From an uncultured Bacteroidales bacterium (GTDB lineage: Bacteria; Bacteroidota; Bacteroidia; Bacteroidales; GCA-2748055), in NCBI GenBank assembly GCA_963732905.1, contig CAVTBM010000011.1:12686-76685 (forward strand): a stretch of 64,000 nt of DNA. Direction: 5' to 3'. The notes under the pieces were generated by a model. The model did not search any database. It was not told the DNA's origin and worked only from the letters and a program-made list of their open reading frames with translations. Below are positions 6,828 through 25,039 of the stretch, piece by piece; the stretch's first letter is position 1; every line of letters starts with the position of its first letter. A program made the translations under genes and the position numbers.

Positions 6828-6854
6828 TTACCGTCAGTAGTTTCGTACCCAGGA

Positions 6855-7241: not shown

Positions 7242-7525
7242 TAGTCACCCCCTTCACCTTCCACATATCCGACCCTTCTGCCCCCGATCCCTATCAGGGT
7301 TAGCTTTGGATGTTGCTTAAGAGGTGAAAATGAGGTGGTGCGTTCAGATGATCCGGAGATGAGTTCCTGGATTTTTTCTTTTAACTAAACGGCTAAGCCC
7401 TCATAGCCTGCCCCATTTTAACGGGGAACACCCCTAAAAAATCAATGAAAAGATGAATAACTAATTAAAAACACACAAAAATCTTCAGTTAAAGAGCTCA
7501 ATTAAAAGTCTTCTTGCGATAAAGC

Positions 7526-7556
7526 TTTGGCAGATATTAAAAAAATGCTAATTTTA
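7526..7556 (+). promoter_or_regulatory. Promoter-like box TTTG-N19-TAATTTTA
   Basis: TTTG at 7526-7529 and TAATTTTA at 7549-7556, a 7/8 match to the Bacteroidota -7 consensus TAnnTTTG, with a 19-nt spacer. Identical in all three module copies. Confidence 0.35.
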
Positions 7557-7577
7557 ATCTACGATAGTGTTCGTCCC

Positions 7578-7610
7578 AAACCTGACAGGTTTTAAAAACC
7601 TGTCAGGTTT
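7578..7610. promoter_or_regulatory. Perfect 15-bp stem / 3-nt loop hairpin AAACCTGACAGGTTT-TAA-AAACCTGTCAGGTTT
   Basis: Arms 7578-7592 and 7596-7610 are exact reverse complements. The hairpin lies 21 nt after the -7-like box and 23 nt before ATG 7634. Confidence 0.85.
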
Positions 7611-7633
7611 AGGATGTACTGTTTGATGAAGGC

Positions 7634-8646
7634 ATGATCAACATGAAAAACCAAACGCCTGAATACGAGTATTTTTTAAGGTACCATCCCGGCAATACAC
7701 GTGTTGTATTGAATACAGAAGCACAATTTGTAGAACAACACGATTATTACCCGTTTGGTATGGAGTTCGCCGGACGACAGGGAGGGGATATCAAATACCG
7801 CTATGACGGTAAGGAGCTGCAGGATATGGAAATCGGGGGAAAAGGATTGGATTGGTACGATTACGGGGCACGATTTTATGATTCCCGCATGGGGAAGTGG
7901 AATTCTCAAGAACCTAAAGCCGAATGTTATTATCAACAATCTTTATATATTTATTCAGGGAATAATCCAATATTATTCCATGATTTTGATGGGAATGATT
8001 ACGGCGTTACCATTGATCAAGGGTCAAAAACCATTACCATCAGTGCAGTATATTTATCCGACAAAAAAGGCATGCCAACATTAAGATGATCAGTTAATGA
8101 AATTAATAATTTAAGTGGCAAATATGTTTTTGTGCCAGGTGGAAAAGCTGCAATCAAGACTGGGCAGACAAATGCATATTCTGTCAATTTTCAACTTACT
8201 ACCGACATAGCTGAAGAAAATGCAACTTTTACCGACCAAAATACTGGAGAAACAGTTACATATGGATCCCAAGCGGACAAAATAGCAACTGACGATAACT
8301 CCGGGGTAGTAAATAGCTATAATATCGTTGAGAATGACGATACACCTAAAGCTGGGGGAGCTGGATCAAATCAAATAGATGTTGAATTATCATCCTCAAA
8401 ATCAACTTCGTTTCTAAGCATGAAATTGGACATACTTTAGGAATGGGGCATAGTTCTGGTATTATGGCTCCAGTAGGAGCTGCTGGAAATTTTGATGCGG
8501 GACAAATTCAACAAACCTTGTCAGGTGTAAATATTGGTGGCAACAAACGAAGTGATCCAAATGCCCCTGGAATTGGTAAGATGCTCGGTGGTCAAACAAA
8601 TGAAGGACTTGAAAATGGTCGAGTAATGTCTACAAAAAGACGATGA
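7634..8646 (+). pseudogene. Orphan Rhs/YD C-terminal tip 1 with a metzincin-like metallopeptidase toxin domain (nonsense plus frameshift)
   Basis: RHS core end: EYEYFLRYHPGNTRVVLNTEAQFVEQHDYYPFGMEFAGRQGGDIKYRYDGKELQD...[13 protein letters not shown]. In-frame TGA at 8087-8089, after which the same frame continues to 8440. A frame switch near 8390-8415 leads into the 8389-8646 frame, which encodes HEIGHTLGMGH (8419-8451), an exact HExxHxxGxxH motif. Confidence 0.75.
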
Positions 8647-8675
8647 AAGATTAATGAGAAGATATAAACGGAAAA

Positions 8676-9187: not shown

Positions 9188-9293
9188 ATATTATTTTTTT
9201 TGTATGGAAATAGCCCTTTCCCAAGGTAGGATATTAAGTATCGTAATTTTGATAGAAAGTTATAAGATTATTTGCTTAATCGCTAAGCCAGGG

Positions 9294-9980
9294 GTGTATG
9301 ATTATGGGTTCCGGTTCTACGATCCTGCAATTGGTCGATTCCCGAGCCTGGATCCCAAAGGCAGATGAGTTTGAAAATCTTTCACCTTACAATTATGCTA
9401 GCAACAATCCCATTACCTGCATTGATTTATGGGGTTTGCAAGGCAAACCCGTAAATGAAATTCGAGATAAAAATGGGAATATTACGGCAGCGACAACTAC
9501 TGCGCAACAGACAACATATATCCCCCCTATTGTGGAATTTGATGTTCCTTTAAGTCAAAATTCTGGAGATAATTTCATTGATAAGGTTTCCGATAATTTA
9601 GGAAATTCATCATCTTTAGTTGAAGCCACTGGAATGATACTTGAAAATACTACCGTAACAAAAACTGGAGCAACTGCTGGAGCCGTAGTTGCTATTGTTA
9701 AAACTTCAGCTGATGCCGCTACAACAGATTTTAGTAATAGCGAAGAAACCGCTGATTTTTTTGAAAACACCACCCAAACTGCTGTTGAAACAGAGCCGGG
9801 CCATTGTGAGCAGCTGTAGATGTAATACTTGAAAATGGAAAAGATAAAAATGGATTGACAAATTTAGACATTGATAGAAAGGATGATGCCTATAGTACAA
9901 ATAAGGACCGACTGGATGCTTACAGTATAATTATGCAATACAACTCTTCAGGCGGATCAGATAAAGATAAGGAAAAATAA
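9294..9980 (+). pseudogene. Orphan Rhs tip fragment starting at (V)YDYGFRFYDP, frameshifted
   Basis: VYDYGFRFYDPAIGRFPSLDPK, then a 1-nt insertion relative to tip 3 (CCCAAAGGCAGAT vs CCAAAAGCAGAT), then ADEFENLSPYNYASNNPITCIDLWGLQGKPVNEIRDKNGNITAATT. TAG at 9817. A third frame is open from 9810 to the TAA at 9978-9980, which abuts the next ATG. Confidence 0.7.
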
Positions 9981-10355: not shown

Positions 10356-10606
10356 ATTAAGGCAAAATCTTGATGATTTTGATATCCCGCAAGAAGCACG
10401 AAACTTTCTCACCGGATTGTCCAAAAAGGCCCCATCGGGGTCAGAGAGCGATAGAATAATTGACAGGTAAGGTTCCCCGGCGCCCCATAGGGTGTGCAAC
10501 CAATTTTGAAAAGAGAATAAAGGAAATCTAGATGAAATTCCATAATCTTTGAAAAGAGGGGGCTTGCTTTTAAATTGTATTTTAATACAGGAGAACAGGA
10601 TATGTA

Positions 10607-10946
10607 TTCGATTTTTTATTGTAAAAACCTGAAACCCTCACGCTGATTTTTTCCTCTTTTTCCCATTAATTGGTGAAGCATTCCCGGACAGTTACTTCGT
10701 GTAGTTGCTTTCTAAAGTTATAAAACATTGGTGCGAAAGATTGAAAGCACCCTGATTGTGCGGCGGATATCCAGGCCGGGTCGATTACTGATGGCTGAAG
10801 AATTACAATTCCGGCAGGTACAGTATATGGCAGGGCAAAAGTATGTGAGTTCGACTGAACGGTACCAGCTGAATAACCTGCGTAAATTGCAGAGCAAAAT
10901 AGATAAACCACATCCTTTAGGGAAAATTGAAGATCACAATTTGTGA
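10607..10946 (+). pseudogene. Tyrosine recombinase/integrase 3'-end remnant, copy 1
   Basis: Encodes ...LQFRQVQYMAGQKYVSSTERYQLNNLRKLQSKIDKPHPL, the catalytic-Tyr region of Bacteroidota-type integrases with His replaced by Gln. The frame is broken upstream at ACTGATGGCTGAAGAATTACAAT. Homologous to 16760-17081 and 19890-20222. Confidence 0.7.
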
Positions 10947-11016
10947 CCTCCAACCTGATTCGCAAAATGCGATACCAGGATTAAAAAGTTATTCTCTGTA
11001 ATAAGAATTAAAGAAA

Positions 11017-12051
11017 ATGAGAAAAGCAGTTACCCCTTCATTTGAAGACTTCTACAAAAGGATAAAAGAAATCCTGGAAACAACTCGTACCAGGATCTAC
11101 CAAACGGTAAATTTTGAAATGGTACAGGCCTATTGGAACATAGGCCGGATTGTTGTTGAAGAGGAGCAAAAGGGCAAAGAAAGAGCTGAATACGGCAGCT
11201 ATTTAATAGAAACTCTTTCAGAAAGGCTTACCAAGGAATATGGGAAAGGATTTACAAAGAGCAATTTAAAGTATATGCGACAGTTTTATCAGACTTTTGA
11301 AAAAAGTCACGCACTGCGTGGCGAATTATCCTGGACCCATTATCGCCTGTTGTTAAAAGTTGAAAATAAAAGTGCCCGTGAGTTCTATATCGAAGAAACC
11401 ATAAGGGGGAACTGGAGCACCAGGCAACTTGAACGGCAGATCAACTCTTTGTACTATGATCGCACATTAATGAGCCGGGATAAAAAGGGAATGATCATGG
11501 ATGGGCGGGCGTTGCAGGATAAAATGCAGCCGGAAGATATTATCAAGGACCCATATGTTTTAGAGTTCCTCGATGTAAGAGAAAATGAGAAACTCGCAGA
11601 ACGGGAGCTGGAGTTTGCTCTTATTGAAAAACTACAGCATTTATTACTTGAATTGGGTACTGGTTTTTCTTTTATCAGGCGTCAATACAGAATTACAGCA
11701 GATACAGATCATTTTTTTATTGACCTGGTTTTTTACAATTACATTTTAAAATTCTTTTTACTGATCGATCTTAAAATAGATAAGCTAAGTCACCAGGACA
11801 TAGGACAGATGGACTTTTATGTACGCTTCTTCGAGGAAAATGTAAAACAGCCCGGGGATAATCCAACAATAGGGCTTATTCTCTGTACCGAAAAGAATAA
11901 AACAATTGTTAAGTACAGTCTACTCAATGAAAGCAGGCAGATCTTTGCATCAAAGTATCAGATGTATTTACCAACGGAGAAACAGTTAAAAAAAGAGATC
12001 CAACGAGAGAAAGAACTGATTGAGCAGGAAAAAAAGCTCTCAAAAGAATAA
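11017..12051 (+). CDS. DUF1016/YhcG-family PDDEXK nuclease-like protein
   Basis: N-terminal YQTVNFEMVQAYWNIGRIVVEEEQKGKERAEYGSYLIETLSERLTKEYGKGF and C-terminal nuclease core ELGTGFSFIRRQYRI...FFIDLVFYN...LIDLK are characteristic of this family. Confidence 0.8.
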   Translation: MRKAVTPSFEDFYKRIKEILETTRTRIYQTVNFEMVQAYWNIGRIVVEEEQKGKERAEYGSYLIETLSERLTKEYGKGFTKSNLKYMRQFYQTFEKSHALRGELSWTHYRLLLKVENKSAREFYIEETIRGNWSTRQLERQINSLYYDRTLMSRDKKGMIMDGRALQDKMQPEDIIKDPYVLEFLDVRENEKLAERELEFALIEKLQHLLLELGTGFSFIRRQYRITADTDHFFIDLVFYNYILKFFLLIDLKIDKLSHQDIGQMDFYVRFFEENVKQPGDNPTIGLILCTEKNKTIVKYSLLNESRQIFASKYQMYLPTEKQLKKEIQREKELIEQEKKLSKE

Positions 12052-12134
12052 TTTTCATGTTGTATAAAAACTGCAACTACCGGTTATACAATTTAATTCA
12101 TTAACCAATCACCCTCCCCGCATCCAACCCTTCT

Positions 12135-12242
12135 GCAGCGGTTTTTTGTCATGATTTATCTGCTGGATTTTTTATGCAGGCAGTCCTTTTGCAGTTGCCG
12201 ATTGGGCCGCATATGGCAAAAGCCACGCCCGGAAAGTGCTGC
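12135..12242. repeat. Long imperfect palindrome (cassette-end element), copy with a 31-nt insertion
   Basis: GCAGCGGTTTTTTGTCATG...CCTTTTGCA / TGGCAAAAGCCACGCCCGGAAAGTGCTGC. The inner stem CTTTTGC/GCAAAAG and the outer GCAGC/GCTGC are complementary. Confidence 0.6.
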
Positions 12243-12413
12243 GCCTGATACTTAACAGGGTTGACTTTGGGGCTTACCTAAGTGATTAAAAATGCAGTGG
12301 TCTGTTCAAATAATCCGGGAACAGTCTGGATTTTTTTCTCTTAATTGAAGTAATTGAAAACACAGAAAAATCTTCAGTTAAGGGCTCAATTAAAAGTCTT
12401 CATGCGCTAGAGC

Positions 12414-12444
12414 TTTGGCAGATATTAAAAAAATGCTAATTTTA
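12414..12444 (+). promoter_or_regulatory. Promoter-like box TTTG-N19-TAATTTTA (copy 2)
   Basis: TTTG at 12414-12417 and TAATTTTA at 12437-12444. Confidence 0.35.
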
Positions 12445-12465
12445 ATCTACGATAGTGTTCGTCCC

Positions 12466-12498
12466 AAACCTGACAGGTTTTAAAAACCTGTCAGGTTT
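12466..12498. promoter_or_regulatory. Perfect 15-bp hairpin (copy 2)
   Basis: Same sequence as 7578-7610. Confidence 0.85.
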
Positions 12499-12594
12499 AC
12501 GATGTACTGTTTGATGAAGGCATGATCAACATGAAAAACCAAACGCCTGAATTCGAGTATTTCTTAAAGAGACCATCCCGGTAATACAGGTGTT

Positions 12595-13509
12595 GTGCTG
12601 AATACAGAAGCACAATTTGTAGAACAACATGATTATTACCCGTTCGGTATGGAGTTCGCCGGACGTCAGGGAGGGGATATCAAGTACCGCTATAACGGGA
12701 AAGAACTGCAGGATATGAAAATCGGGGGAAGAGGTTTGGATTGGTACGATTATGGGGCGAGGTTCTATGACCCGGCATTAGGTAGGTGGAATGTTCAAGA
12801 TCCCTTGGCGGAATATCACTTTAACCAATCTCCATATAACTACGTAGAAAATAATCCTTTGCTTTATATTGATCCCTTTGGACTAAATAAAGAAGATCGT
12901 CAAGAAAGAAGAAGACAGAGAAGAGCTAAAAGAAGGAATCAAAAAGTTCCAGAGGACCTAAGATATGATCTACCAGGAGTGGATTGTGTCGGCTCAGCTC
13001 CAAGTACTCCCAAACCCATTGATCCAAAAAATTTAGCTAACAAAGGTGGAACTGTACCTGGGGGCATCTTTCTCTGGAGTATTTTTGGTGAAGGTTCAGC
13101 TGGCATCGGAACTACCAACAAAGATGTCGAAAGCCTTAATCTTGATTGGTTGCTTATTTTGCTTATAGCTCAGCATGGGAGTATCCCCACTGAGAGAATT
13201 GAGGCAATAAATGAAGCAATTGCCAAGGCAAAAAATGCTATAGAGGAAGCTACAGTAACTTCGGATGAAGAGATTTATGAGAAGAATACAGGTAATTCTA
13301 AGGCTGCTAGTCCTCAAAAGAAGACAATTGTGAAAACATATTCAGAGAAATCAAATAAAGAAGTTGTTTCTAAGCGGGGATTTTATAATCGATTTAACAA
13401 GGATACAACCAAACTCTACGAGGTTCGTCCAAAATCAGGTGATACCATTTGGGTATGGCCGACCAATCCTGATGGGACTGTCAAAAATCCACCTGAACCA
13501 TATAAATAA
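12595..13509 (+). CDS. Orphan Rhs/YD C-terminal tip 2 (canonical PxxxxDPxGL, unknown toxin domain)
   Basis: YYPFGMEFAGRQGGDIKYRYNGKELQD...[27 protein letters not shown]...NNPLLYIDPFGL, then an Arg-rich linker RQERRRQRRAKRRNQK and ~190 aa with no motif I recognise. The module ATG at 12522 is out of frame because of a 1-nt insertion (AAAGAGACC vs AAAGGACC) and stops at 12582-12584. Confidence 0.75.
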   Translation: MLNTEAQFVEQHDYYPFGMEFAGRQGGDIKYRYNGKELQDMKIGGRGLDWYDYGARFYDPALGRWNVQDPLAEYHFNQSPYNYVENNPLLYIDPFGLNKEDRQERRRQRRAKRRNQKVPEDLRYDLPGVDCVGSAPSTPKPIDPKNLANKGGTVPGGIFLWSIFGEGSAGIGTTNKDVESLNLDWLLILLIAQHGSIPTERIEAINEAIAKAKNAIEEATVTSDEEIYEKNTGNSKAASPQKKTIVKTYSEKSNKEVVSKRGFYNRFNKDTTKLYEVRPKSGDTIWVWPTNPDGTVKNPPEPYK

Positions 13510-13516
13510 ATTGGTA

Positions 13517-14314
13517 ATGAAAAAAAATTCGTTAATTATTATATTTATTGTTATTGTAAGTAGTTGTCAATGTAATAAGAAAAAGGAATATTATTCTGAC
13601 GGATCGATTAAGATTGAGAAAATTTATTGTAAGAACAACGAACATATTAAAACGATCGAGCACTATCGAAATGGTCTCGTTTCATCGATTACATTTGAAA
13701 ATGTCAAAGGTAATTTAGATGGAAAATGTTCCTATTTTGATAAAAACGGTAATATCGAAAGTTCAGTTGTTTATAAAGATGGTATTTCAGATGGTATAGC
13801 AAAATGGTTTTATCCTAATGGCAAAATAATGGAAGAAGTGTATATAATAAATAAAGAAAGAGTTGGACCTCATATATATTATGATTTATCTGGAAATATA
13901 GTAAGAAAAAACTTTTATATTTTAATAAATAATAAATCATTCTTCAATGGGTATCTAGTTTATAATAAATTTGGAAATATTATTCCCGATTCGTCTATGT
14001 ATGTATTTTTAAAAACTGATAAGGACACAGTTAATATTAACGATACTATAACCTATTGGTTTAATCAATATCTATCAAAAGGGATTCAAGTTAAAGCCAT
14101 TATAGGTAATATTGATAAAAATTTCAATATCGTTGATTCAACCACAATTAAATATGTAAACCCAAATTTAAAAAACAAGTTTTCACCCACAAAAGTTGGA
14201 AATGATACAATTAGGATCATTTATGAATTGAAAAAAGAAACAGCAAATAATACTATTGATAAGATATATAAAGGCCGTATATTACTTGAAAAGATTTTAA
14301 ATGTTAGAGAGTAA
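13517..14314 (+). CDS. Immunity-like lipoprotein with MORN-variant (YwqK-like) repeats
   Basis: Lipobox MKKNSLIIIFIVIVSSC. Repeats YYSDGSIKIEKIY, YFDKNGNIESSVVYKDGISDGIAKWFYPNGKIMEEVY. The YwqK/COG2849 family is a known antitoxin/immunity family. The start is taken at ATG 13517, 8 nt after the tip stop. Confidence 0.65.
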   Translation: MKKNSLIIIFIVIVSSCQCNKKKEYYSDGSIKIEKIYCKNNEHIKTIEHYRNGLVSSITFENVKGNLDGKCSYFDKNGNIESSVVYKDGISDGIAKWFYPNGKIMEEVYIINKERVGPHIYYDLSGNIVRKNFYILINNKSFFNGYLVYNKFGNIIPDSSMYVFLKTDKDTVNINDTITYWFNQYLSKGIQVKAIIGNIDKNFNIVDSTTIKYVNPNLKNKFSPTKVGNDTIRIIYELKKETANNTIDKIYKGRILLEKILNVRE

Positions 14315-14829
14315 ACTGGTATGATTACGGGGCAAGGTTTTATGATCCGGCGATTGCAAGGTGGAATAAAAAAAGACAACAAGACATAAATGATGAATTG
14401 CGACTTCTTTCAATGGTACATAATAAAATAGTTAATAATAATACAGGGAATAATAATGATAAATATCCTGGATGGTCTGGATTAATAGGAATTTCGCTAG
14501 GCAGTCTCGATTTGTGGAATAATATGAAGGATAATTTATTGGCATCAAAATCAATCATAGAAAATCAAATTGAGGAGATTAATGAAAGATTAAAGAACAA
14601 GAATGCATCTTCTTCAGAGGTTGATAAATTACAAAACAATTTGAATGATTTGGTTAAGAAACAAGCTCAAATTGATTCGGTTATTGAAGCTGTCATAAGA
14701 GTTATTGATAATTCTAAAAAATATCAAGAACAATTAACTTCTCCAAGAGATGTCACAAGAACTAGTTCTTCTGGTGAAAATGATTATAAAAAAAGTCTTG
14801 ATATCGTTAAGAAATGGGGAAATGAATAA
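14308..14829 (+). pseudogene. Orphan Rhs tip fragment starting at [11 protein letters not shown], with no start codon of its own
   Basis: The frame opens at 14308, overlapping the stop of the preceding gene: (RVN)[31 protein letters not shown].... It then has an Asn-rich and coiled-coil-like tail (NQIEEINERLKNKNASSSEVDKLQNNLNDLVKKQAQ). The first ATG is at 14398. Confidence 0.65.
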
Positions 14830-14852
14830 AATTGAATTAATTATAGTTAGTT

Positions 14853-15245
14853 ATGAAGCAAGACTATGACGATATTCAGAATATTCTAACGGATTATTAC
14901 TTAAATGATGATTACATTAGTGTAATAAATACATGGGAATCTAAGATAAATTATAAATTATTACCTAAATTCGATAATAAATTACGAAATGAAGTACTTC
15001 ATGCGTTAATTATAAGTTATAAAAAAACCGAGAATATTAAACAGAGCATTTTTTATATAAATAAATATATTAATAAATTGTTAAATAATCATCAAAATGA
15101 AAACTTTGATGAAGAATTGCTTTTCTGTTTTACAGTTCTCGCATCAATATATGCATCTAAACAAAATTATCTAAAAGAATTAAAAACGCTATATAAATAT
15201 AATAAATTTAATAACAAAAATAAAAAAAACAAAAAACCTAATTGA
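14853..15245 (+). CDS. Immunity-like small cytoplasmic protein (helical, Lys/Asn-rich tail)
   Basis: 130-aa ORF 23 nt after the tip stop. Very AT-rich. No recognisable motif. Confidence 0.45.
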   Translation: MKQDYDDIQNILTDYYLNDDYISVINTWESKINYKLLPKFDNKLRNEVLHALIISYKKTENIKQSIFYINKYINKLLNNHQNENFDEELLFCFTVLASIYASKQNYLKELKTLYKYNKFNNKNKKNKKPN

Positions 15246-15261
15246 TGATTTAGAAGTACAT

Positions 15262-15492
15262 TTGTTTAATAAATTTCAGATGATGAACAAATTTTATTCT
15301 TACATATTTATTTCTTTGATAATTTTACATTTGATAATTGAAAATTTTTTTTCAATATCAATTAGTAATAAATTCTTTCTTGTGTTGTGGACAGCTTTTA
15401 TTATATTTTCTATGATATGGATTGTAATCACATTGCTAAATAAAAAACTTGCCTTAAAATTTTTTAGATTTCTTATCAGTGTTGTCCAGTAA
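15262..15492 (+). CDS. Small 2-TM membrane protein (possible second immunity gene)
   Basis: YSYIFISLIILHLIIENFF and FLVLWTAFIIFSMIWIVITLL are hydrophobic helices. The start is uncertain (listed TTG at 15262, ATG at 15280). Confidence 0.4.
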   Translation: MFNKFQMMNKFYSYIFISLIILHLIIENFFSISISNKFFLVLWTAFIIFSMIWIVITLLNKKLALKFFRFLISVVQ

Positions 15493-15605
15493 AACCGGAA
15501 GTTACTAATATTTTACAATCAAATGCCTGAAAATCAATCATACATTTTTCATTTTTCAAAAGCAAGCCCACCTCATTTCCGGGAATAAGGAATTTTCATA
15601 CTCAT

Positions 15606-15701
15606 TCGCTCGTTGTTTGTAAGCCTTCGGCTAACTGCATCTTGAAATAATACCTTCTACCAGTTAGCTTTGTTGCAAAGCAAGCCTTCGGCTAACGAGC
15701 G
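15606..15701 (+). other. Intergenic element: 15-bp direct repeat AAGCCTTCGGCTAAC x2 enclosed by an 8-bp stem
   Basis: Direct repeats at 15621-15635 and 15682-15696. CGCTCGTT (15607-15614) pairs with AACGAGCG (15694-15701). GCTAACTG (15630-15637) pairs with CAGTTAGC (15661-15668). Confidence 0.3.
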
Positions 15702-15868
15702 CCTTTGGTTTCATAGCGTAATGGATCCCTCAAAGAGAATAGCCAGTTCAGACTTTGGTTATTCTTACTCCCTCAATGTCAAGATGTTTTAGCTCCACGA
15801 TTATTGAGTGAAACAAATTTATTTCTAAAGATTTATCTTTACATTTGTAAAACAATGCTTGGAAGATC

Positions 15869-16096
15869 ATGAGGACAATACTGATAAAAATACCCGATAG
15901 TGTTGATATGTCAGACTATGACTTTTCAATGATGATTGCTGCAAAGCTTTATGAAGATAGAAAACTGTCTTCCGGTCAAGCTGCCGAAATGGTTGGTTTA
16001 ACCAAAAGAGCTTTCATAGAAATTCTCGGAAAATACGGAGTTTCGTTGTTCAGCAATTCAATTGATGATCTTCATTCAGATATAGCAAATGCCTAA
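15869..16096 (+). CDS. UPF0175-family antitoxin
   Basis: LSSGQAAEMVGLTKRAFIEILGKYGVSLF is the typical UPF0175 core. There is an 8-nt overlap with the downstream PIN-like gene. A perfect TAnnTTTG box (TACATTTG) sits at 15840-15847. Confidence 0.75.
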   Translation: MRTILIKIPDSVDMSDYDFSMMIAAKLYEDRKLSSGQAAEMVGLTKRAFIEILGKYGVSLFSNSIDDLHSDIANA

Positions 16097-16559
16097 GGTC
16101 ATTATTTCCGATACCAGTGTTCTGAATCTATTTCAAAAAATCAGCAGACTCGACCTGCTTCACGGAATTTATGAAGAGATCATTACAACGCCTGAAGTCG
16201 CAGAGGAATATGGGGACGAGTTACCTATATGGATAAATATTCAAGTAGTTACCGACAGAAAATATCAGGAACTATTGGAATTACAGGTTGACAAAGGTGA
16301 AGCCAGTGCCATCGCACTGGCTAAAGAATATTCAGATGTATTATTATTGCTCTATGATTTAAAGGCCAGGAAATTAGCTACTAAATTGAATTTGAAATAT
16401 ACCGGGACACTTGGTATTATAACGAAGGCAAAGAATAAAGGCTTAATTGAAAAGGTTAAACCTGTCCTGGATAAAATTCAAAAGACAGATTTCAGGATAT
16501 CAGAAAAGATACTTAAAGAGATTCTTTTACTGAATGACGAAGACGTGCAAGAGAGATAA
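16089..16559 (+). CDS. DUF3368-type PIN-like nuclease toxin
   Basis: VIISDTSVLNLF...GEASAIALAKEY...LLLLYDLKARKLATKLNLKYTGTLGIITKAKNKGLI matches the DUF3368 pattern. Note LLYD where LLDD would be typical. Confidence 0.7.
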   Translation: MPKVIISDTSVLNLFQKISRLDLLHGIYEEIITTPEVAEEYGDELPIWINIQVVTDRKYQELLELQVDKGEASAIALAKEYSDVLLLLYDLKARKLATKLNLKYTGTLGIITKAKNKGLIEKVKPVLDKIQKTDFRISEKILKEILLLNDEDVQER

Positions 16560-16622
16560 ATCACATTTGAGCAAGTTATACCTAGGATTGGTATCTGAAT
16601 TTCATCAAGTCTCAAAAAAAAT

Positions 16623-17081
16623 CATTGGTATGATTACGGGGCACGGTTCTATGAACCCCGGCTGGGTAGGTGGCATGTGATTGTTCCGGCCACTGAGGCC
16701 AATCACTTTGAATGGTAACGTTCATATGCCGGGCCTTAAACACATGAGCTCATCACACAAATTCGATTTTTTATTGTAAAAAACCTGAAATCCTCACGCT
16801 GATTTTTTCCTCTTTTTCCCATTAATTGGTGAAGCATTCCCGGACAGTTACTTCGTGTAGTTGCTTTCTGAAATTATAATAAACTGGTGCGAAATCTAGA
16901 ATGCAACCAGATTATGCGGCGGATATCCGGGCCGGGTCGATTTTTGATGGCCGAAGAATTACAATTCCGGAAGGTGCAGTATATGGCAGGTCATAAGTAC
17001 GTGAGTTCTACGGAACGGTAACAGCTGAATAACCTGGATAAGTTGCAGGAACGGATAAACAAATATCACCCGCTGAGTTAA
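16623..17081 (+). pseudogene. Rhs junction stub plus tyrosine recombinase 3' remnant, copy 2
   Basis: [31 protein letters not shown] (16623-16718), then ...KVQYMAGHKYVSSTER*QLNNLDKLQERINKYHPLS*. The catalytic Tyr codon is TAA. Near-identical to 19751-20222. Confidence 0.75.
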
Positions 17082-17131
17082 ACTAAAAGTGAATTTTAAT
17101 CGTTAAATTTGTGTACATAATGAGAGTAAAT

Positions 17132-17368
17132 ATGAATCTTCAGTCCAAAAAATTAGAGCTGGTTCAGCTTATACTGAATACTAAAAAACCCTCTATCCTT
17201 GCCAGGGTTGAAGCTGTACTAAAAGGGAAAGCTGTCGATTGGTGGGATGAGATAAGCCCGGAGGAACGGGAAGCCATAGAAAAGGGCTTATCAGAGGCAG
17301 ATAAAGGAGAGCTTATACCTCATGAAGAAGTCATGAAAGAAGTAAGGGCAAAATATAAGCTCGACTAA
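17132..17368 (+). CDS. Antitoxin partner of the RelE/ParE-family toxin
   Basis: Small acidic protein (WWDEISPEEREAIEKGLSEADKGELIPHEEVMKEV). TAATG overlap with the toxin gene. The start could also be 17111 or 17120. Confidence 0.6.
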   Translation: MNLQSKKLELVQLILNTKKPSILARVEAVLKGKAVDWWDEISPEEREAIEKGLSEADKGELIPHEEVMKEVRAKYKLD

Positions 17369-17664
17369 TGAAGATTAGTTGGACTCCCACAGCAAGAAGG
17401 ACTTATTTTAAAGTTCTCGATTATTTAGCGGAGAACTGGACCAAAAGAGAAGTTGCCCATTTTATAAGCGAAGTTGAAAGCTTATTGAATCAGATCACCA
17501 ACAATCCTGAAATGTTCCAGGCCTCCAGAAAAAAGAAAAGCGTCAGAAAGGCTCTAATCACGAAACACAACGCGCTTTATTACAGGATAAAACCCAGAAA
17601 AAAAGAACTAGAGCTAATCACCTTCTGGGATAATCGCCAAAACCCCAATAAATTAACTTATTAG
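17368..17664 (+). CDS. RelE/ParE-family type II toxin
   Basis: 98 aa. WTPTARRTYFKVLDYL...ALYYRIKPRKKELELITFWDNRQNP is a typical ParE/RelE fold signature. Confidence 0.7.
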   Translation: MKISWTPTARRTYFKVLDYLAENWTKREVAHFISEVESLLNQITNNPEMFQASRKKKSVRKALITKHNALYYRIKPRKKELELITFWDNRQNPNKLTY

Positions 17665-17694
17665 TTATCCACCCTCCCCGCCTCCAACCCTTCT

Positions 17695-17770
17695 GCAGCT
17701 GTTTTTGTCATGCCTTTTGCCGTTGCCGATTGCACCGCGTATGGCAAAAGCCACGCCAAAAAACTGCTGC
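17695..17770. repeat. Long imperfect palindrome (cassette-end element)
   Basis: GCAGCTGTTTTTGTCATGCCTTTTGCC (17695-17721) against GGCAAAAGCCACGCCAAAAAACTGCTGC (17743-17770). About 80% complementary, with a 21-nt loop. Confidence 0.7.
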
Positions 17771-17997
17771 CCCAGGCAACGGTACATAATGTGTCGGTAT
17801 TTGAAACCCTCCACCAGAAACGGGATCTTCCTTCCAACCGGAATTTTTTCTTTTAACTGAACGGCGAAGCCCTCATAGCATACACTGTTTTGACTTGTAG
17901 CACCTCTAAAAAATCAATTAATAGGTAAATAACAAACTGAAAACTCGGAAAAATCTTCAGCTAAAGGGCTCAATTAAAAGTCTTCGTTTGCTAAAGC

Positions 17998-18028
17998 TTT
18001 GGCAGATATTAAAAAAATGCTAATTTTA
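17998..18028 (+). promoter_or_regulatory. Promoter-like box TTTG-N19-TAATTTTA (copy 3)
   Basis: TTTG at 17998-18001 and TAATTTTA at 18021-18028. Confidence 0.35.
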
Positions 18029-18047
18029 ATCTACGATCGTTCGTCCC

Positions 18048-18080
18048 AAACCTGACAGGTTTTAAAAACCTGTCAGGTTT
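18048..18080. promoter_or_regulatory. Perfect 15-bp hairpin (copy 3)
   Basis: Same sequence as 7578-7610. Confidence 0.85.
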
Positions 18081-18103
18081 ACGATGTACTGTTTGATGGA
18101 GGC

Positions 18104-19003
18104 ATGATCAACATGAAAAACCAAACGCCTGAATACGAGTATTTCTTAAAGGACCATCCCGGTAATACACGTGTTGTGCTGAATACAGAAGCACAATTTG
18201 TAGAACAACACGATTATTACCCGTTTGGTATGGAGTTCGCCGGACGACAGGGTGGAGATATCAAGTATCGGTATAACGGAAAGGAAATGCAGGATATGAA
18301 AATCGGGGGGAGAGGGTTGGATTGGTACGATTACGGATTTAGATTTTACGACCCGGCTTTAGGTCGGTTCCCAAGCCTGGATCCAAAAGCAGATGAGTTT
18401 GAAAATCTCTCTCCATACAACTATGCCAGTAACAATCCGGTAACATGTATTGATCTATGGGGAATACAAGGCCGGCCAGTAAATAAAGTTCGAGATCAGA
18501 AGGGAAATATTACAGCTGCTACAACCAGTGCTCAACAGTCAACGTATATTTCTACAATGGAGCCAAAAACTATTAGTAATAACTCAATTGAATTTAAACC
18601 GACAAATGAGTCTATATATCAGAGTGCAAATTGGTGGGAACTTACAACTGCTCCAGATATACAAGAATGGTTAAAAGTTGACAAAGTTCCATCGGCTGTA
18701 GCTGTAGGAGGACTTATAACTGTTCTAAGCGCAGCTGTTCCAGAAGTCATTTCAGGTATAACAGATTTCGGTTCTAATGTCACTTTAAATATTTCTACAT
18801 CAATTGAATCTTCAACAACAATTGCAGTCGGAACTGGTGTGGTAGTGGGTGCTGCTAAAACATTAACTGATGCCCCACCTGATACGCCTGAAATACCTAA
18901 CCCGGTAATAGAGGTTTCTTCAGAAATGACTGAATATATTATTCAATCTACACACGAGTTTATGAAAAATATTCAAAATTCAAATGATAAAAAGTCTAAA
19001 TAG
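18104..19003 (+). CDS. Orphan Rhs/YD C-terminal tip 3 (intact ORF) with a Gly/Ala/Val-rich hydrophobic C-terminal domain
   Basis: MINMKNQTPEYEYFLKDHPGNTRVVLN...YYPFGMEF...GLDWYDYGFRFYDPALGRFPSLDPKADEFENLSPYNYASNNPVTCIDLWGIQG. The tail contains VPSAVAVGGLITVLSAAVPEVISG and TTIAVGTGVVVGAAKTL. Confidence 0.8.
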   Translation: MINMKNQTPEYEYFLKDHPGNTRVVLNTEAQFVEQHDYYPFGMEFAGRQGGDIKYRYNGKEMQDMKIGGRGLDWYDYGFRFYDPALGRFPSLDPKADEFENLSPYNYASNNPVTCIDLWGIQGRPVNKVRDQKGNITAATTSAQQSTYISTMEPKTISNNSIEFKPTNESIYQSANWWELTTAPDIQEWLKVDKVPSAVAVGGLITVLSAAVPEVISGITDFGSNVTLNISTSIESSTTIAVGTGVVVGAAKTLTDAPPDTPEIPNPVIEVSSEMTEYIIQSTHEFMKNIQNSNDKKSK

Positions 19004-19047
19004 AGTTAGAAATAAATTTGTATTTTTAATTCATCAACTCATAATTT

Positions 19048-19269
19048 ATGTGTTTTTTGGATAAAAAAAGGCTTAAATATATCTATTTTTATTTTATGAT
19101 TCTTTGTTTTCAAATTATATTGGTGAGAATATTTGGTGAACCTGATTTATTAAAAACACCAAGCTCATCACAAACTTGGGGAGAAAGTATTAATGATTTT
19201 CCAATATATATGATAACATCGTTATTCTTAACGTTAATATTCTATTTTTTTGATCGCTTCTCTAAATAA
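19048..19269 (+). CDS. Immunity-like 2-TM membrane protein
   Basis: YIYFYFMILCFQIILVRIF and FPIYMITSLFLTLIFYFF helices. AT-rich. 44 nt after the tip 3 stop. Confidence 0.5.
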   Translation: MCFLDKKRLKYIYFYFMILCFQIILVRIFGEPDLLKTPSSSQTWGESINDFPIYMITSLFLTLIFYFFDRFSK

Positions 19270-19284
19270 TAATTACAATGCAAT

Positions 19285-19728
19285 ATGACAAACTTTAGGA
19301 ATATTCGAAATTTAAATATTGTATTTTCATTTATTCTTATAGTTATGTATTTTCGTTCATTACGATATTTAATAATGATTATAACTCATTATAATGTATT
19401 TTTTAAGAGAAGTTACTTTCAAATATTGTTCCTTTCACCTAGATTAGTTGTGTTTATTAATACTTTTAATATAATTATTGGAGTATGTATATTAATAAAT
19501 GCTTTTGCTCTATTAAATAAAATGCAAAAAAGTATAATATTTATTAAAATATTACTTCCAATAAGTGCTATACTAAATTTACCATTTTTCTATAAAAATA
19601 TAATAGACTATGAGGATAATTTACATAAATATGTTAGCCTTGGAATTACAATGTTGATTTATATAATTTATTTAACCACATATCTTTTTTACAATAGTCG
19701 TAAAATCAAGCTTTTATTTACGAATTAA
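19285..19728 (+). CDS. Immunity-like polytopic membrane protein (about 4 TM)
   Basis: Four hydrophobic segments, e.g. NIVFSFILIVMYF, VVFINTFNIIIGVCILINAFALL, VSLGITMLIYIIYLTTYLF. AT-rich. Confidence 0.5.
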   Translation: MTNFRNIRNLNIVFSFILIVMYFRSLRYLIMIITHYNVFFKRSYFQILFLSPRLVVFINTFNIIIGVCILINAFALLNKMQKSIIFIKILLPISAILNLPFFYKNIIDYEDNLHKYVSLGITMLIYIIYLTTYLFYNSRKIKLLFTN

Positions 19729-19750
19729 CATATAATACAAAAAGGATGTA

Positions 19751-20222
19751 AACTGGTACGATTACGGGGCACGGTTCTATGATCCACGCCTAGGTAGGTG
19801 GCATGTTATTGTTCCGGCCACTGAGGCCAATCACTTTGAATGATATCGTTCATATGCCAGGCCTTAAACACATGAGCTCATCACAAAAATTCGATTCTAT
19901 ATTGTAAAAACCTGAATTCCTCACGCTGATTTTTTGCTCTTTTTCCCATTAATTGGTGAAGCATTCCCGGACAGTTACTTCGTAGTTGCTTTCTAAAGTT
20001 ATAATAAACTAGTGCGAAATCTTGAATGCACCCTGATTGTGCGGCAGATATCCGGGCCGGGTCGATTACTGATAGCCGAAGAATTACAATCTCCGGCAGG
20101 TTCAATATATGGGAGGGCATAAGTATGTGAGTTCTACGGAGCGGTATCAGCTCAATAACCTGGGTAAGGTACAGAGCAAATTGGAGAAATATCATCCATT
20201 GTCACATAATAGTCGCAAATAA
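19751..20222 (+). pseudogene. Rhs junction stub plus tyrosine recombinase 3' remnant, copy 3
   Basis: [30 protein letters not shown] (to 19843), then ...KNYNLRQVQYMGGHKYVSSTERYQLNNLGKVQSKLEKYHPLSHNSRK* ending at TAA 20220-20222. The frame is closed upstream by TAG in ACTGATAGCCGAAG. Confidence 0.75.
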
Positions 20223-20262
20223 GTTACCCTAATTGGTAACTTTGAATTAAATTTGTACTTGT

Positions 20263-20574
20263 ATGAGAATAATAAAAGAGAAAACTCTCATTGAATATTG
20301 CCGGAAGAGTAAATACAAGAAGGCGGAGGAATCCTTGAAATCCTGGGTTTATGAGGTAAAATACTCTACCTGGAATAATGTGAATCAGCTGAAACTGAAA
20401 TATAGAAATGCCAGCGTAATAAGTTCAAAAAGAGTAGTTTTCAATATCAAAGGCAATGATTACAGGTTAATCGTAGATATCGAATACAAACTAAAAATAA
20501 TTTTCATTGTCTGGTTTGGGACACATGAGGAATATGTTAGGATAGATGCAAAAACAATAAGATATGAATATTAA
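20263..20574 (+). CDS. higB: HigB-family type II toxin (mRNA interferase)
   Basis: 103 aa. LKSWVYEVKYSTWNNVNQLKLKYRNASVISSKRVVFNIKGNDYRLIVDIEY...FIVWFGTHEEY is the HigB_toxin pattern. Confidence 0.8.
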   Translation: MRIIKEKTLIEYCRKSKYKKAEESLKSWVYEVKYSTWNNVNQLKLKYRNASVISSKRVVFNIKGNDYRLIVDIEYKLKIIFIVWFGTHEEYVRIDAKTIRYEY

Positions 20575-21001
20575 AATATTGAAAACAGAAGAGGAATATA
20601 ACACAGCCTGTGAAAGAATTTATGAGCTGATACATAGTACAGAACAGTCTATTGAGCCTGATAGTCCAAAGGGAGAAGAACTGGAACTTTTGTCCTTACT
20701 TGTAGAAAAATATGAGCAGGAACATAATTATATGGATGCACCGGACCCGGTGGAAGCTATAAAGTTCAGAATGGAACAGATGAATTTAAAGCAAAAGGAT
20801 GTTGCTCCATTATTTGGAGGAAAGACACGAGTGTCAGAAGTCCTTCATGGGAAAAGAGCATTAACGCTTAAGATGATTACTTTATTAAACCGATATCTTG
20901 GCATCCCCCTGGATTCATTAATTAGTGGGAATAAGGACATAAAACTTGAAGCTGAAAATAAAGAGAAGTTACTAAAATATCATCCATCCAGGATTACCTG
21001 A
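20564..21001 (+). CDS. higA: HigA-family HTH antitoxin
   Basis: 11-nt overlap with higB. EEYNTACERIYELI...PDPVEAIKFRMEQMNLKQKDVAPLFGGKTRVSEVLHGKRALTLKMI (Xre-type HTH). Confidence 0.8.
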   Translation: MNIKILKTEEEYNTACERIYELIHSTEQSIEPDSPKGEELELLSLLVEKYEQEHNYMDAPDPVEAIKFRMEQMNLKQKDVAPLFGGKTRVSEVLHGKRALTLKMITLLNRYLGIPLDSLISGNKDIKLEAENKEKLLKYHPSRIT

Positions 21002-21062
21002 AAAGATCTAGGGCCACAATGATTTAAAAATCCACCACTACCCCACTCCCAATCCTTCTGAA

Positions 21063-21133
21063 GCAGTATTTTGGTGTGGCTTTTGCTATGCTCGACGCCA
21101 TCTGCAACTGTAATAGCCACACCAAAATACTGC
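21063..21133. repeat. Cassette-end palindrome, perfect 19-bp arms (fourth, partial module 21031-21140)
   Basis: GCAGTATTTTGGTGTGGCT (21063-21081) is the exact reverse complement of AGCCACACCAAAATACTGC (21115-21133). It is preceded by the leader variant TCCACCACTACCCCACTCCCAATCCTTCTGAA. Confidence 0.85.
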
Positions 21134-21198
21134 ATCACCAGTCTATGTTAACATAATATAAACAGCTGTAATCCTAAAAAGCTTATCTTTGTGTTACT

Positions 21199-21483
21199 AT
21201 GGATCGCAATGAAATAAATACACGGATCATTAAATACCTTAAGCCCTTCGAACCCGAAAAAATTGGCATATTCGGATCTTATGCCAAAATGGAGGAAAAA
21301 CCGGGAAGTGATATTGATATCCTGGTAAAGTTTAAGAAAACCATAACATTGCTTCAGCTTGCCCAAATTCACAGAGAACTTTCTCAAATCCTGGGGAAAA
21401 AAGTTGATTTGGTCACAGAGCCATCCCTAAAAAATGAACGGCTCCGAAAATATATTTACTCTGATCTTAAGATCATCTTTTAA
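21199..21483 (+). CDS. mntA: MNT-type nucleotidyltransferase antitoxin
   Basis: IGIFGSYAKMEEKPGSDIDILV is the minimal nucleotidyltransferase GS...DxD motif. TAATG overlap with the HEPN gene. TATCTTTG -7 box at 21186-21193. Confidence 0.8.
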   Translation: MDRNEINTRIIKYLKPFEPEKIGIFGSYAKMEEKPGSDIDILVKFKKTITLLQLAQIHRELSQILGKKVDLVTEPSLKNERLRKYIYSDLKIIF

Positions 21484-21818
21484 TGAAAGACGACCGGATT
21501 TACATTGACCATATACAGCAAAGTATCGAGAGAATTGAATCTTATTTATCCGGGAAAGATCATGATTCATTTTCTGATGACTATTTAACACAGGATGCAG
21601 TCGTAAGACAATTGGAAATAATTGGAGAAGCGACTAAAAGGATTTCAATGGAATTCAAAAGAGAGAATCCCCAGGTACCCTGGCTTGATATGGCTGGGAT
21701 GAGGGATGTGCTTATTCATGGTTAGATTGATGTGGATCTGGATATCATATGGAAAACCGTTTCGGAAAGCATCCCTGTCCTAAAACTGCTGCTCAAAAAC
21801 CTGAAGTATATAGGTTAA
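21483..21818 (+). pseudogene. hepT: HepT/DUF86 HEPN toxin with a premature TAG
   Basis: RQLEIIGEATKRIS...MRDVLIHG then TAG (21723-21725) where Tyr is expected. The same frame continues IDVDLDIIWKTVSESIPVLKLLLKNL to TAA 21816-21818. Confidence 0.7.
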
Positions 21819-25000: not shown

Positions 25001-25039
25001 AAGACAGGAAAGAAGGAAACCGGAAAACCGAACGTAGAT

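Follow-up and report, generated by a model that had tools for sequence, protein, structure and literature searches.

The window analyzed here, a stretch of 64,000 nucleotides (nt) from contig CAVTBM010000011.1 of an uncultured Bacteroidales bacterium (assembly GCA_963732905.1), contains at positions 6894-21725 an array of orphan Rhs toxin tips, immunity genes, and toxin-antitoxin pairs, with all genes on the + strand. Set into this array are three broken copies of the 3′ end of a tyrosine recombinase gene. The names recB, for this gene, and recA, for its partner, are given here to two overlapping recombinase genes, and recA is not host RecA. At a probability of roughly 0.8 each, the three fragments are scars copied from one ancestor that was already broken, and they are relics of the right-hand end of a family of mobile elements residing in Rhs toxin loci of Bacteroidota; the remnants themselves are most likely dead.

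The guanine-plus-cytosine (GC) content of the array is 35.3% (6828-21800), versus 44-46% in its flanks. From left to right, the array comprises an ORF6N remnant, an arm/leader, tip 1, and a WYDYG-class tip; then copy 1, DUF1016, a palindrome, a leader, tip 2, immunity genes, and a PIN-type toxin-antitoxin pair; then a stub with copy 2, a ParE pair, a palindrome, a leader, tip 3, and immunity genes; and finally a stub with copy 3, HigBA, a palindrome, and an MNT/HEPN pair. The features are as follows (ORF, open reading frame; HMM, hidden Markov model; HTH, helix-turn-helix; loci in other genomes carry L numbers).

6894..7229, +: ORF6N-domain cargo remnant with an in-frame stop, at the left end of what survives of the array (found by tblastn from the L073 ORF6N protein)
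7228..7633, +: right-arm end/leader, copy 1 (repeat families D7, D10, and D2; inverted repeat I2)
7634..8089, +: orphan Rhs tip 1, then broken toxin and immunity ORFs (tblastn with Rhs core end, residues 2-114; ORF list)
9204..9819, +: WYDYG-class orphan Rhs tip (..VYDYGFRFYDPAIGRF..) with C-terminal domain (ORFs; repeat D9, common with tip 3)
9981-10355: membrane immunity candidate of the WYDYG-class tip (ORF list)
10581..10946, +: copy 1 of the broken module, stub lost; conserved block 10637-10713, recB-derived part 10766-10946 (repeats, alignments, HMM)
11017..12051, +: cargo 1, DUF1016_N plus YhcG_C PD-(D/E)XK nuclease (Pfam E 1e-55 and 3e-48)
12129..12251, +: right-arm motif CCCTTCTG..TTTTTTGTCATG.. 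then imperfect palindrome, copy 1; weak folding
12300..12594, +: leader copy 2 (D10 12380-12456, hairpin 12457-12507; repeats)
12595..13509, +: orphan Rhs tip 2 with C-terminal domain (ORFs, Pfam, tblastn)
13364-14314: MORN-repeat immunity candidate of tip 2 (Pfam)
15869..16559, +: UPF0175/DUF3368 (PIN-like) toxin-antitoxin pair, directly 5′ of stub 2 (Pfam)
16626..16722, +: Rhs stub of copy 2, its first bases the WYDYG junction core TGGTATGATTACGG (16626-16639)
16723..17081, +: copy 2 remnant; conserved block 16793-16869, recB-derived part 16922-17081
17111..17664, +: cargo 2, antitoxin and ParE-family toxin (Pfam ParE_toxin)
17689..17779, +: right-arm motif and palindrome, copy 2; DNA fold -17.8 kcal/mol, z -2.1
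17838..18103, +: leader copy 3 (D7/D10, hairpin 18039-18089)
18104..19003, +: orphan Rhs tip 3 with C-terminal domain (ORFs, tblastn)
19048-19728: membrane immunity candidates of tip 3 (ORF list)
19754..19850, +: Rhs stub of copy 3, its first bases the core TGGTACGATTACGG (19754-19767)
19851..20222, +: copy 3 remnant; conserved block 19920-19994, recB-derived part 20047-20222
20263..21001, +: cargo 3, HigB toxin and HTH antitoxin (HigA-like) (Pfam)
21052..21143, +: right-arm motif and palindrome, copy 3; DNA fold -25.4 kcal/mol, z -8.4; inverted repeat I1
21199..21725, +: nucleotidyltransferase (MNT) and putative HEPN/DUF86-type pair, the last array genes (MNT by Pfam)

Three copies of one broken recombinase 3′ end

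The window copies were defined by direct-repeat families D3-D6 and D8 and by MAFFT alignments, in which the remnant parts of copies 1-3 are 84.7-85.0% identical to one another. Copies 2 and 3 are each joined to a version of the same Rhs stub, 97 nt long and encoding WYDYGARFY(D/E)PRLGRWHV.., and the two stubs are 90% identical. A family HMM built on 33 sequences, mostly full-length recB (three recA sequences among them were later found to be mis-assigned), matches all three copies, at 10806-10919 (independent E value 9e-17), 16863-17075 (1e-18), and 20079-20201 (7e-20), with zero matches elsewhere in the window. A preliminary description made from the letters of the window had recognized both the fusion of two copies to one stub and the origin of all three fragments in a Bacteroidota tyrosine recombinase, and both points are borne out; its estimate that ~110-130 codons are present was too generous. 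The HMM-supported part is limited to the last 40-65 codons of each copy, and what is demonstrably recombinase begins at ..IRA(G)SIT.. and comprises the final ~62 codons up to the stop. Upstream of it, a gapless stretch of 36 codons has weak similarity (LFFPLIGEAFPDSYFV.. versus LFISINGSENIKNSLLH..). An assignment of the region 5′ of ..IRAS.. to recB residues ~206-260 (HELITKIRFF aligned with HEYLTETRP) is not supported by the recB profile, and L001 has a fragment of an opposite-strand HTH gene at that place.

A Pfam search with the reconstructed 58-aa fragment alone returned no match, so that its membership among the recombinases is shown via the subfamily profile; full-length members of that subfamily do match Phage_integrase (PF00589), the family to which the preliminary description had looked. 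The copies fit the subfamily C-terminus ..KQIRASVITxWLKxxNLRQVQYMAGHKYVSSTERYQ..HPL and cover only the region from Arg-II to Tyr of the catalytic residue set, with a frameshift between Arg-II and His-III in every copy; none retains the complete set of Arg-I, Lys, His-II, Arg-II, His/Trp-III, and Tyr expected of an intact gene.

Lesions were read from a DNA alignment against intact genes and then placed by coordinate. A 1-nt deletion at ..ACTGA|TGG.. is common to copies 1-3 (~10791/2, 16947/8, and 20072/3) and to both copies on a related contig, L003, and puts ..IRA(G)SIT(D) and WLKNYN into different frames. Copies 1 and 2 additionally have a second 1-nt deletion, AATTACAAT|TCCGG (10809/10 and 16965/6), which is absent from copy 3. 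The private lesions comprise, in copy 1, a change of the conserved His to Gln (CAA, 10836-10838) with an intact Tyr codon (10863-10865); in copy 2, replacement of the catalytic Tyr codon by TAA (17019-17021); and in copy 3, a 2-nt deletion in a conserved block, with the His codon and the Tyr codon (20145-20147) intact. Each of these, apart from the private deletion in copy 3, had been described before and was recovered at the nucleotide level.

Because the lesions are nested and the junction between stub and remnant is common, the fragments descend from one already-broken copy, in agreement with the earlier proposal of duplication after decay. Three separate integrations of related elements, each decaying to a similar stump, would account for the different cargo behind each copy, and stumps of recB with other breakpoints did arise independently elsewhere: an Rhs end is joined to recB residue ~240-250 in L049, a toxin to residue ~175 in L072, and a ParE-like gene to residue ~213 in L070, and L046 has two recB 3′ pieces after an intact recB. 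This explanation is refuted for practical purposes by the occurrence of the same 1-nt deletion in all five copies of the window and L003, by their common upstream block and, where the stub is present, common stub/block junction, and by the order of the lesions, in which copy 3 stands apart from copies 1 and 2.

The parent gene and its partner

The name recB reflects a constant overlap of the gene with the 3′ end of recA, a second tyrosine recombinase gene of canonical type (291 aa). Eighty-seven proteins were found with a reconstructed 65-aa C-terminus, with the consensus ..KQIRASVITHWLKNYNLRQVQYMAGHKYVSSTERYQLNNLDKLQSKLEKYHPL (also given as ..KQIRASVITHWLKNYNLRQVQYMAGHKYVSSTERYQ..). All 87 of these closest database proteins are ‘XerD’ ORFs of 35-114 aa, some of them full genes truncated at a contig end; genuine stumps lying in Rhs/toxin-antitoxin arrays are found among them in L001 (P0018) and L003 (P0001). 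The L001 stump adjoins an insertion sequence of the rve family. A genome scan yielded 360 matching stretches, from which 73 loci were kept, most with complete ORFs, and an exhaustive profile search yielded 906 cluster representatives at E<1e-10, many of them full-length.

Full-length parents are XerC/D-like proteins of 285-334 aa that match PF00589 and PF02899 (SAM-like N-domain). The nearest belong to Bacteroidales/Marinilabiliales (L066, L050 from Geofilum rubicundum, L053, L055, and L060) and are 74-88% identical to the window copies across the last 42-45 residues. Catalytic residues were compared in ~30 recB genes, including that of L055 (9263-10249): the catalytic Arg-I is replaced by Thr in 26 of the 30 true recB, and His-II is usually Lys, with Arg-II, His-III, and Tyr invariant; recA is canonical. 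This pattern suggests that the two products form a heteromer in which one subunit is unusual or partly inactive.

Architecture of the intact element

Intact recB genes are part of what is, from its gene order, a conserved unit of ~8 kb in Rhs toxin loci of Bacteroidota. The order is Rhs tip with toxin and immunity gene, opposite-strand HTH gene, DnaG-type primase, recA, recB, small cargo (frequently a toxin-antitoxin pair or ORF6N), palindrome/dif-like sites, a leader running into the next tip, and that tip, and the unit is present at about 70 loci across the phylum, finished plasmids included. Neighbors were counted around 80 full-length recB copies wherever the flank was long enough: recA lies directly upstream in 72 of 73, primase upstream in 58 of 58, and the opposite-strand HTH gene upstream in 47 of 53, while an Rhs end is found upstream in 39 of 39 and within 3 kb downstream in 38 of 42. 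In L055, a full-length Rhs protein of 1311 aa ending ..DWLDYGARMYDPQLGRWHV.. plus a toxin is followed by an immunity-size ORF, an opposite-strand HTH_3 regulator, a 953-aa primase (DnaG zinc ribbon, Toprim, and C-terminal winged helix), recA, and recB; after a ~2-kb spacer, a new Rhs tip starts with WYDYGAR, and the whole order then recurs as a diverged second copy. Many elements have an extra small ORF between the HTH gene and the primase (MSERKTKTLKIHP..HLAGQWLAKLGF..; e.g., L058 5959-6378, L043 5451-5790, L054 5485-5879, and L064 6022-6384), which is SymE/AbrB-like by eye only.

Hosts include Chitinophagales, Cytophagales, Sphingobacteriales, Bacteroidales, Marinilabiliales, Saprospirales, and one metagenome-assembled genome (MAG) labeled Ignavibacteriaceae. 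Complete Bacteroidota-type elements with Rhs ends are also found in L034, L053, and L056, MAGs labeled Williamsia sp., Peptococcaceae, and Crenarchaeota; these foreign labels most likely reflect binning contamination. The element order is not an artifact of MAG assembly. It occurs in two finished RefSeq plasmids, pAT2 of Aureibacter tunicatorum NBRC 107587 and an unnamed plasmid of Aureispira sp. CCB-E, where the annotation reads RHS repeat-associated core protein, hypothetical protein, opposite-strand HTH, CHC2 zinc finger/toprim, and two tyrosine recombinases (the second annotated as ‘hypothetical protein’ in Aureispira) and where the order is repeated in tandem with identical protein accessions.

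The same four genes, opposite-strand HTH, CHC2-Toprim primase, and two tyrosine recombinases, are also found in Leptospira plasmids beside ParA/ParB and a HicA toxin, as in L. kirschneri plasmid pLiSL21 (L079; NZ_CP092659.1 76520-93249). Order and orientation are conserved, and the primase is 27% identical over 96% of its length. In contrast to the Bacteroidota element, which is embedded between Rhs tips and tandemly repeated, the Leptospira module is followed by ParAB on a 107-kb plasmid, with no Rhs gene annotated beside it. This Rhs-free backbone suggests a plasmid-replicon ancestry, and the Bacteroidota element may descend from a plasmid maintenance backbone.

Insertion junctions in Rhs codons

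Two independent cases allowed insertion junctions to be mapped. In the Cytophagales MAG CBDDKZ01, an 8.17-kb unit, 99.7% identical between its two occurrences, lies in two different Rhs genes (L057 and L058) on two contigs with unrelated flanks. The relevant sequences are given below, with the marker nucleotide in parentheses.

Left junction (L057): ..GAGTACTACCC(A)TTTGGGATG GTGATG..
Element's own copy: ..GGTGCAT TGAGTACTACCC(G)TTTGGGATG GTGATG..
Right junction: ..TGAGTACTACCC(G)TTTGGGATG ATTATG..

The reciprocal swap of the two flanking markers confines the crossover to TTTGGGATG, 9 bp within the YYPFGM codons. In the Bacteroidales MAG CAXXXS, a class-2 element ends ..GTTGCGTAAGT and abuts at least four different displaced tips at one nucleotide, its right end joining directly in front of TGGTATGATTACGG (WYDYG). 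At the outer edges of the array, the left junction has the sequence TGGTA(C)GATTA(C)GGGGCT and the right junction TGGTA(T)GATTA(T)GGGTTT, and the element's own copy reads TGGTA(T)GATTA(C), a marker pattern that confines the exchange to GATTA (5 bp). The element boundary is a direct repeat of 15-22 bp of conserved Rhs codons, either YYPFG or WYDYG, and outside the cores old and new tips are only ~70% identical. In L055 and L059, ORFs read through the junction, placing the tip in frame with the resident Rhs core, and the class-2 right end supplies a conserved start and the leader peptide MGCLKL..CVSWYDYG. Dyad symmetry at the cores (6-N10-6) was considered as evidence of a recombinase site and dropped because the element-side half may be plain coding sequence, either Rhs codons or the MGCLKL..CVSWYDYG leader.

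The parent element thus probably inserts site-specifically into Rhs codons, and insertion would be catalyzed by the products of recA and recB. The ~70% identity outside the cores favors site-specific recombination by the element's own recombinases over a RecA-dependent route. The competing mechanism, which concerns the parent element only, is a plasmid-like episome that enters Rhs genes by RecA-dependent homologous recombination and uses recA/recB to resolve multimers at dif-like sites. It draws on the HTH-primase-recombinase-recombinase order as a plasmid backbone beside ParAB in Leptospira, on dif-like sites (TCCTATAA-N5-7-TTATGTTAAAT) located 0.1-1.5 kb 3′ of recB in most lineages, on the missing catalytic Arg-I of recB, and on the fact that the sharp right boundary belongs to the element and not to the crossover. 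Such a route is nonetheless rather unlikely, in that reciprocal markers limit the exchange to 5 bp and 9 bp in the two cases, perfect Rhs identity at the element boundary spans only 15-22 bp, and tracts of 5-9 bp with ~70% identical flanks fall far below the needs of RecA.

The right arm: cargo, palindrome, and dif-like sites

The cargo genes behind the three remnants, DUF1016, a ParE pair, and HigBA, were verified by Pfam, and a palindrome follows each of them, as previously described. From sequence comparison, cargo followed by a palindrome is the ordinary right arm of the element family: similar cargo and the same motif stand behind intact recB elsewhere, which identifies the window right arms as normal element arms. 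In intact elements, the cargo includes ParE pairs (L048 and L001), a DUF433/DUF5615 pair (L058), and ORF6N (L073), and the distance from recB to the next tip is 419-2746 nt, a range that includes the 1056 and 1640 nt of the window. The window ParE is homologous to the ParE directly 3′ of intact recB in L048 (E 8e-15). The ORF6N remnant at the left end of the array aligns with residues 67-173 of the L073 protein (45% identity, E 1e-23), which is identified as ORF6N by Pfam and whose gene adjoins an intact recB.

After the cargo comes the motif CCCTTCTG-N-TTTTTTGTCATGC-TTTTTG.., then an imperfect, often nested palindrome (CCCTTCTG..GTCATGC). Motif and palindrome lie ~100-150 nt 3′ of intact recB in L066, L071, and L062, and 3′ of cargo in L001, L048, and the window (12129, 17689, and 21052); the motif of window copy 1 also recurs 3′ of intact recB in L066, L071, L062, L055, L047, and L048. 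A view of the palindromes as strong hairpins was set aside, as it holds for 21052-21143 only (z -8.4), the other two being weak.

The dif-like sites often occur as an inverted pair forming a long palindrome (e.g., L071 10690-10790, L048 8390-8475, L001 10985-11130, and L073 2050-2145). The dif-like 10-mer occurs 36 times in ~1 Mb of loci, versus ~4 expected by a uniform-composition estimate. The conserved right-arm TTATGTTAAAT is identical to the XerD arm of Escherichia coli dif, and these sites may act in resolution or as a second place of recombination. In the window, dif-like traces are degenerate only (e.g., 17795-17810 and 21150-21165).

Palindromes between co-directional cassettes raise the question of an integron-like array or one like rAID-1 of Bacteroidales, an immunity-only array headed by one intact 5′ recombinase (Ross et al. 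2019; bioRxiv 10.1101/471110). The recombinase 3′ ends and palindromes would then be attC-like boundaries, with capture by a recombinase located upstream or elsewhere. The window shares with rAID-1 its occurrence in Bacteroidota, a XerD-like tyrosine recombinase, a co-directional array of low GC content, repeated intergenic motifs, orphan immunity-like genes, and toxin-antitoxin genes, and has at least two co-directional downstream genes at a GC content of at most 41%; with integrons it shares a tyrosine recombinase, co-directional cassettes separated by imperfect palindromes, and frequent toxin-antitoxin cassettes. The intact recB of L046, followed by two more recB 3′ pieces, would also fit. 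In contrast, the window lacks the intact 5′ recombinase that defines rAID-1 (XerD-like, with at least 44% identity to BF9343_RS08045); its units hold Rhs tips with toxins, not immunity genes alone; intact relatives keep a recombinase pair inside each ~8-kb multi-gene unit beside the primase and HTH gene, not at the head of the array; and junctions were mapped to a coding motif within the target gene, not to palindromes or attC hairpins. The integron-integrase model (NCBIfam TIGR02249) gave only a partial, sub-threshold match to one parent (E 2.5e-7, 30 bits against a cut-off of 265). An array of either kind is accordingly very improbable.

Origin of the window array

Both window stubs begin exactly at the class-2 core (16626 and 19754), which identifies each stub as a displaced WYDYG-class tip. 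The sequence just 5′ of stub 3 (..AAAAAGGATGTAAAC) bears a loose likeness to the right end of class-2 elements. Contig L003 of a related organism carries orthologues of copy 1 (95% identity) and copy 2 (89%), versus 85% between paralogues, so that the duplication predates the split between window and L003. The L003 copies have the same stub, the same block, and both deletions, and the DUF1016-linked copy still has its stub; in the window, homology of copy 1 with its L003 orthologue begins at 10606.

The history favored by these data is that integration would fuse the element's own tip in frame to a resident Rhs core and push the old tip downstream, after which deletion of every element core would leave a gutted array. 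Deletions would first have joined an Rhs stub (the displaced WYDYG tip) to the last third of recB, followed by the first 1-nt deletion. The copy 3 lineage would then have split off before the second 1-nt deletion occurred and copies 1 and 2 separated; after the window and L003 lineages parted, copy 1 would have lost its stub in the window lineage and private lesions would have accumulated. The broken module was probably copied inside the array, for which unequal crossing-over or gene conversion involving the repeated tips and arms would be the simplest route. Its position before three cargoes is compatible with such gene conversion or unequal crossing-over, with later insertions at the stub core, and with mobilization in trans.

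Several observations weigh against this account. An intact element, recA, primase, and a full-length Rhs gene are all absent from the window, and the link to the element therefore rests on homology to other genomes. Neither the recB nor the primase profile detects anything in the ~250 nt that separate the stub from the recB-derived part, and the relative L001 has a fragment of the opposite-strand HTH gene at the equivalent place. Neither the cargo 3′ of the three copies nor the genes 5′ of them are related from copy to copy, so that plain segmental duplication is insufficient and has to be supplemented by later cassette turnover or gene conversion. Ascertainment of the loci was by the recB 3′ motif, which precludes any claim that 3′ ends survive preferentially. 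Finally, a 78-nt block within each module has variable sites at 5 of 78 positions, versus 62 of 204 in the recB-derived part downstream (Fisher p 8e-6; five copies), and identity drops on both of its sides, a degree of conservation that simple neutral decay does not predict.

A related block is present in the more distant MAG L001 (16770-16900), where it follows an Rhs stub and the opposite-strand HTH fragment. The conservation of the 78-nt block possibly reflects selection on a cis-element or a gene-conversion hotspot. No promoter-like box, structured motif, or Rfam family was found in it, and two metagenome scans gave zero matches. Its interpretation as the HTH/primase control region or the primase 5′ end was discarded after two negative searches, one with an nhmmer profile built on 52 regions 5′ of the primase gene, the other with an HMM of the primase. 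Likewise, the 16-nt motif TTTTTCTTTTAATTGA was rejected as an enriched binding site (6 matches in the window versus 3.2 expected, not significant).

The conservation of the block is the main reason for retaining another explanation, namely that the broken module is a non-autonomous mini-element or cis-acting cassette boundary, which selection would maintain and which intact elements at other places in the genome would move or re-join in trans, with different cargo on each occasion. The module retains the left junction core TGGTAYGATTACGG, at which the stub starts exactly, a putative internal control or binding block, and a full right arm; homology between window and L003 begins at most 2 nt from the core, with different upstream neighbors (a PIN toxin-antitoxin pair versus MNT/HEPN); the related block in L001 also lies 3′ of an Rhs stub, with the HTH fragment between; and one broken module fronts three different cargoes. 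Yet the module has not been seen at a new, otherwise empty site in any second genome, later insertions of other elements at the stub core account just as well for the differing neighbors, and the block has neither metagenomic matches nor a promoter-like or structured motif. A mini-element is thus judged improbable, and decay of an element followed by copying of the broken module within the array is the preferred reading.

Other features of the window

The tips at 7634, 9204, 12595, and 18104 have PxxxxDPxG-type core ends followed by small ORFs, which marks them as orphan tips. The main window tips begin ~80 codons further upstream than the WYDYG core (YEYFL..), and their three leaders are all alike. 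Leader 1 holds the CCCTTCTGC motif without the palindrome, a conserved ~200-nt D7/D10 region, and a perfect hairpin (7569-7619), and ends ..AGGATGTAC, just 5′ of the tip 1 ORF. The leader sequence TTTG-N19-TAATTTTA, located in repeat D10, appears to resemble a Bacteroidetes-type promoter, as judged by the Bacteroides promoter consensus. A near-perfect hairpin (GTTCGTCCCAAACCTGACAGGTTTT/AAAACCTGTCAGGTTTACGATGTAC) is located between this promoter-like box and the start codon of each main tip; it is followed by no T-run and is hence not an obvious terminator. Rfam searches of the array returned only sub-threshold miRNA-like matches, on hairpins.

At the right end of the array, the HEPN label of 21483-21725 is putative and was taken from the gene table of L003, in which an MNT/HEPN pair precedes each stub. 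No long YD-repeat ORF that would indicate a full-length rhs gene occurs in the window, and tblastn and HMM searches of all 64 kb detected no element HTH gene, primase, recA, or intact recB, consistent with the earlier statement that an intact recombinase is lacking. The region 5′ of 6894 encodes a glycoside hydrolase (on the - strand), a GH5 protein, and a hybrid sensor kinase. Beyond the array, an 8-nt unit (GAGGTTAT) is repeated in tandem in ~13-19 copies at 24832-24988, overlapping the 3′ end of a 618-aa ORF (22998-24854) and continuing past it; a ~61-nt unit (GACGTGATGCTTCACGTCTCTTCGGAAAAAC..) with an internal hairpin occurs three times in tandem at 25037-25223; and a 108-nt repeat is present at 25355-25462 and 32623-32730, 7.3 kb apart.

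Relation to known systems and significance

For the acquisition of C-terminal toxins by Rhs and other polymorphic toxins, the sole explanation so far has been homologous recombination together with a hypothetical episomal circle. The C-terminal displacement model (Jackson et al. 2009; PMC2935791) has the resident tip pushed out by an incoming one through a proposed circular intermediate, predicted to carry a core fragment, a tip, and the intervening genes; homologous recombination was invoked, and no integrase was known to accompany Rhs. As in the arrays on which that model was based, the window has dissociated tips consisting of a core piece, a variable toxin, and an immunity gene. The main rhs gene and the element cores are missing from the window. 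Unlike in the model, the units of intact arrays each contain a primase and a pair of tyrosine recombinases, and 5-9 bp delimit the exchange. Two adjacent Xer-like tyrosine recombinases are also a feature of XerC/XerD-dif, IMEX (integrative mobile elements exploiting Xer), and the paired recombinases of Tn554. In contrast to these systems, the element encodes its own pair, recB has Thr in place of Arg-I and Lys in place of His-II, and the insertion junctions map to Rhs codons and not to the dif-like site. No description of an Rhs-linked HTH/primase/two-recombinase element was found in a literature search that reached few subscription journals, and the element is probably undescribed so far.

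Considered alone, the fragments are pseudogene scars of modest interest, and their value lies in pointing to a mobile element that possibly explains the exchange of Rhs toxins in Bacteroidota. The most far-reaching interpretation, for which the odds appear about even, is that they are footprints of phylum-wide, undescribed, plasmid-derived elements that insert by conservative site-specific recombination (5-9 bp) into Rhs codons, delivering a tip in frame and shunting the old tip behind an element-borne promoter. For annotation, the numerous 35-114 aa ‘XerD fragments’ in Bacteroidota metagenomes are at least in part scars or contig-cut pieces of the element, and toxin-antitoxin pairs in Rhs arrays can be read as element cargo. 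Several carriers are available as cultured strains whose genomes are finished or in draft (Aureibacter tunicatorum NBRC 107587, Aureispira sp. CCB-E, Geofilum rubicundum JCM 15548, and Paraflavitalea speifideaquila BL16E), which makes the mechanism directly accessible to experiment.

An element that combines toxin tip, immunity gene, primase, and two recombinases, and that occurs in tandem from Chitinophagales to Bacteroidales, could fill the integrase gap of Rhs systems. If so, it would supply the integrase and circular intermediate that the C-terminal displacement model lacks, and the gutted modules of the window may still serve as recombination or expression cassettes.

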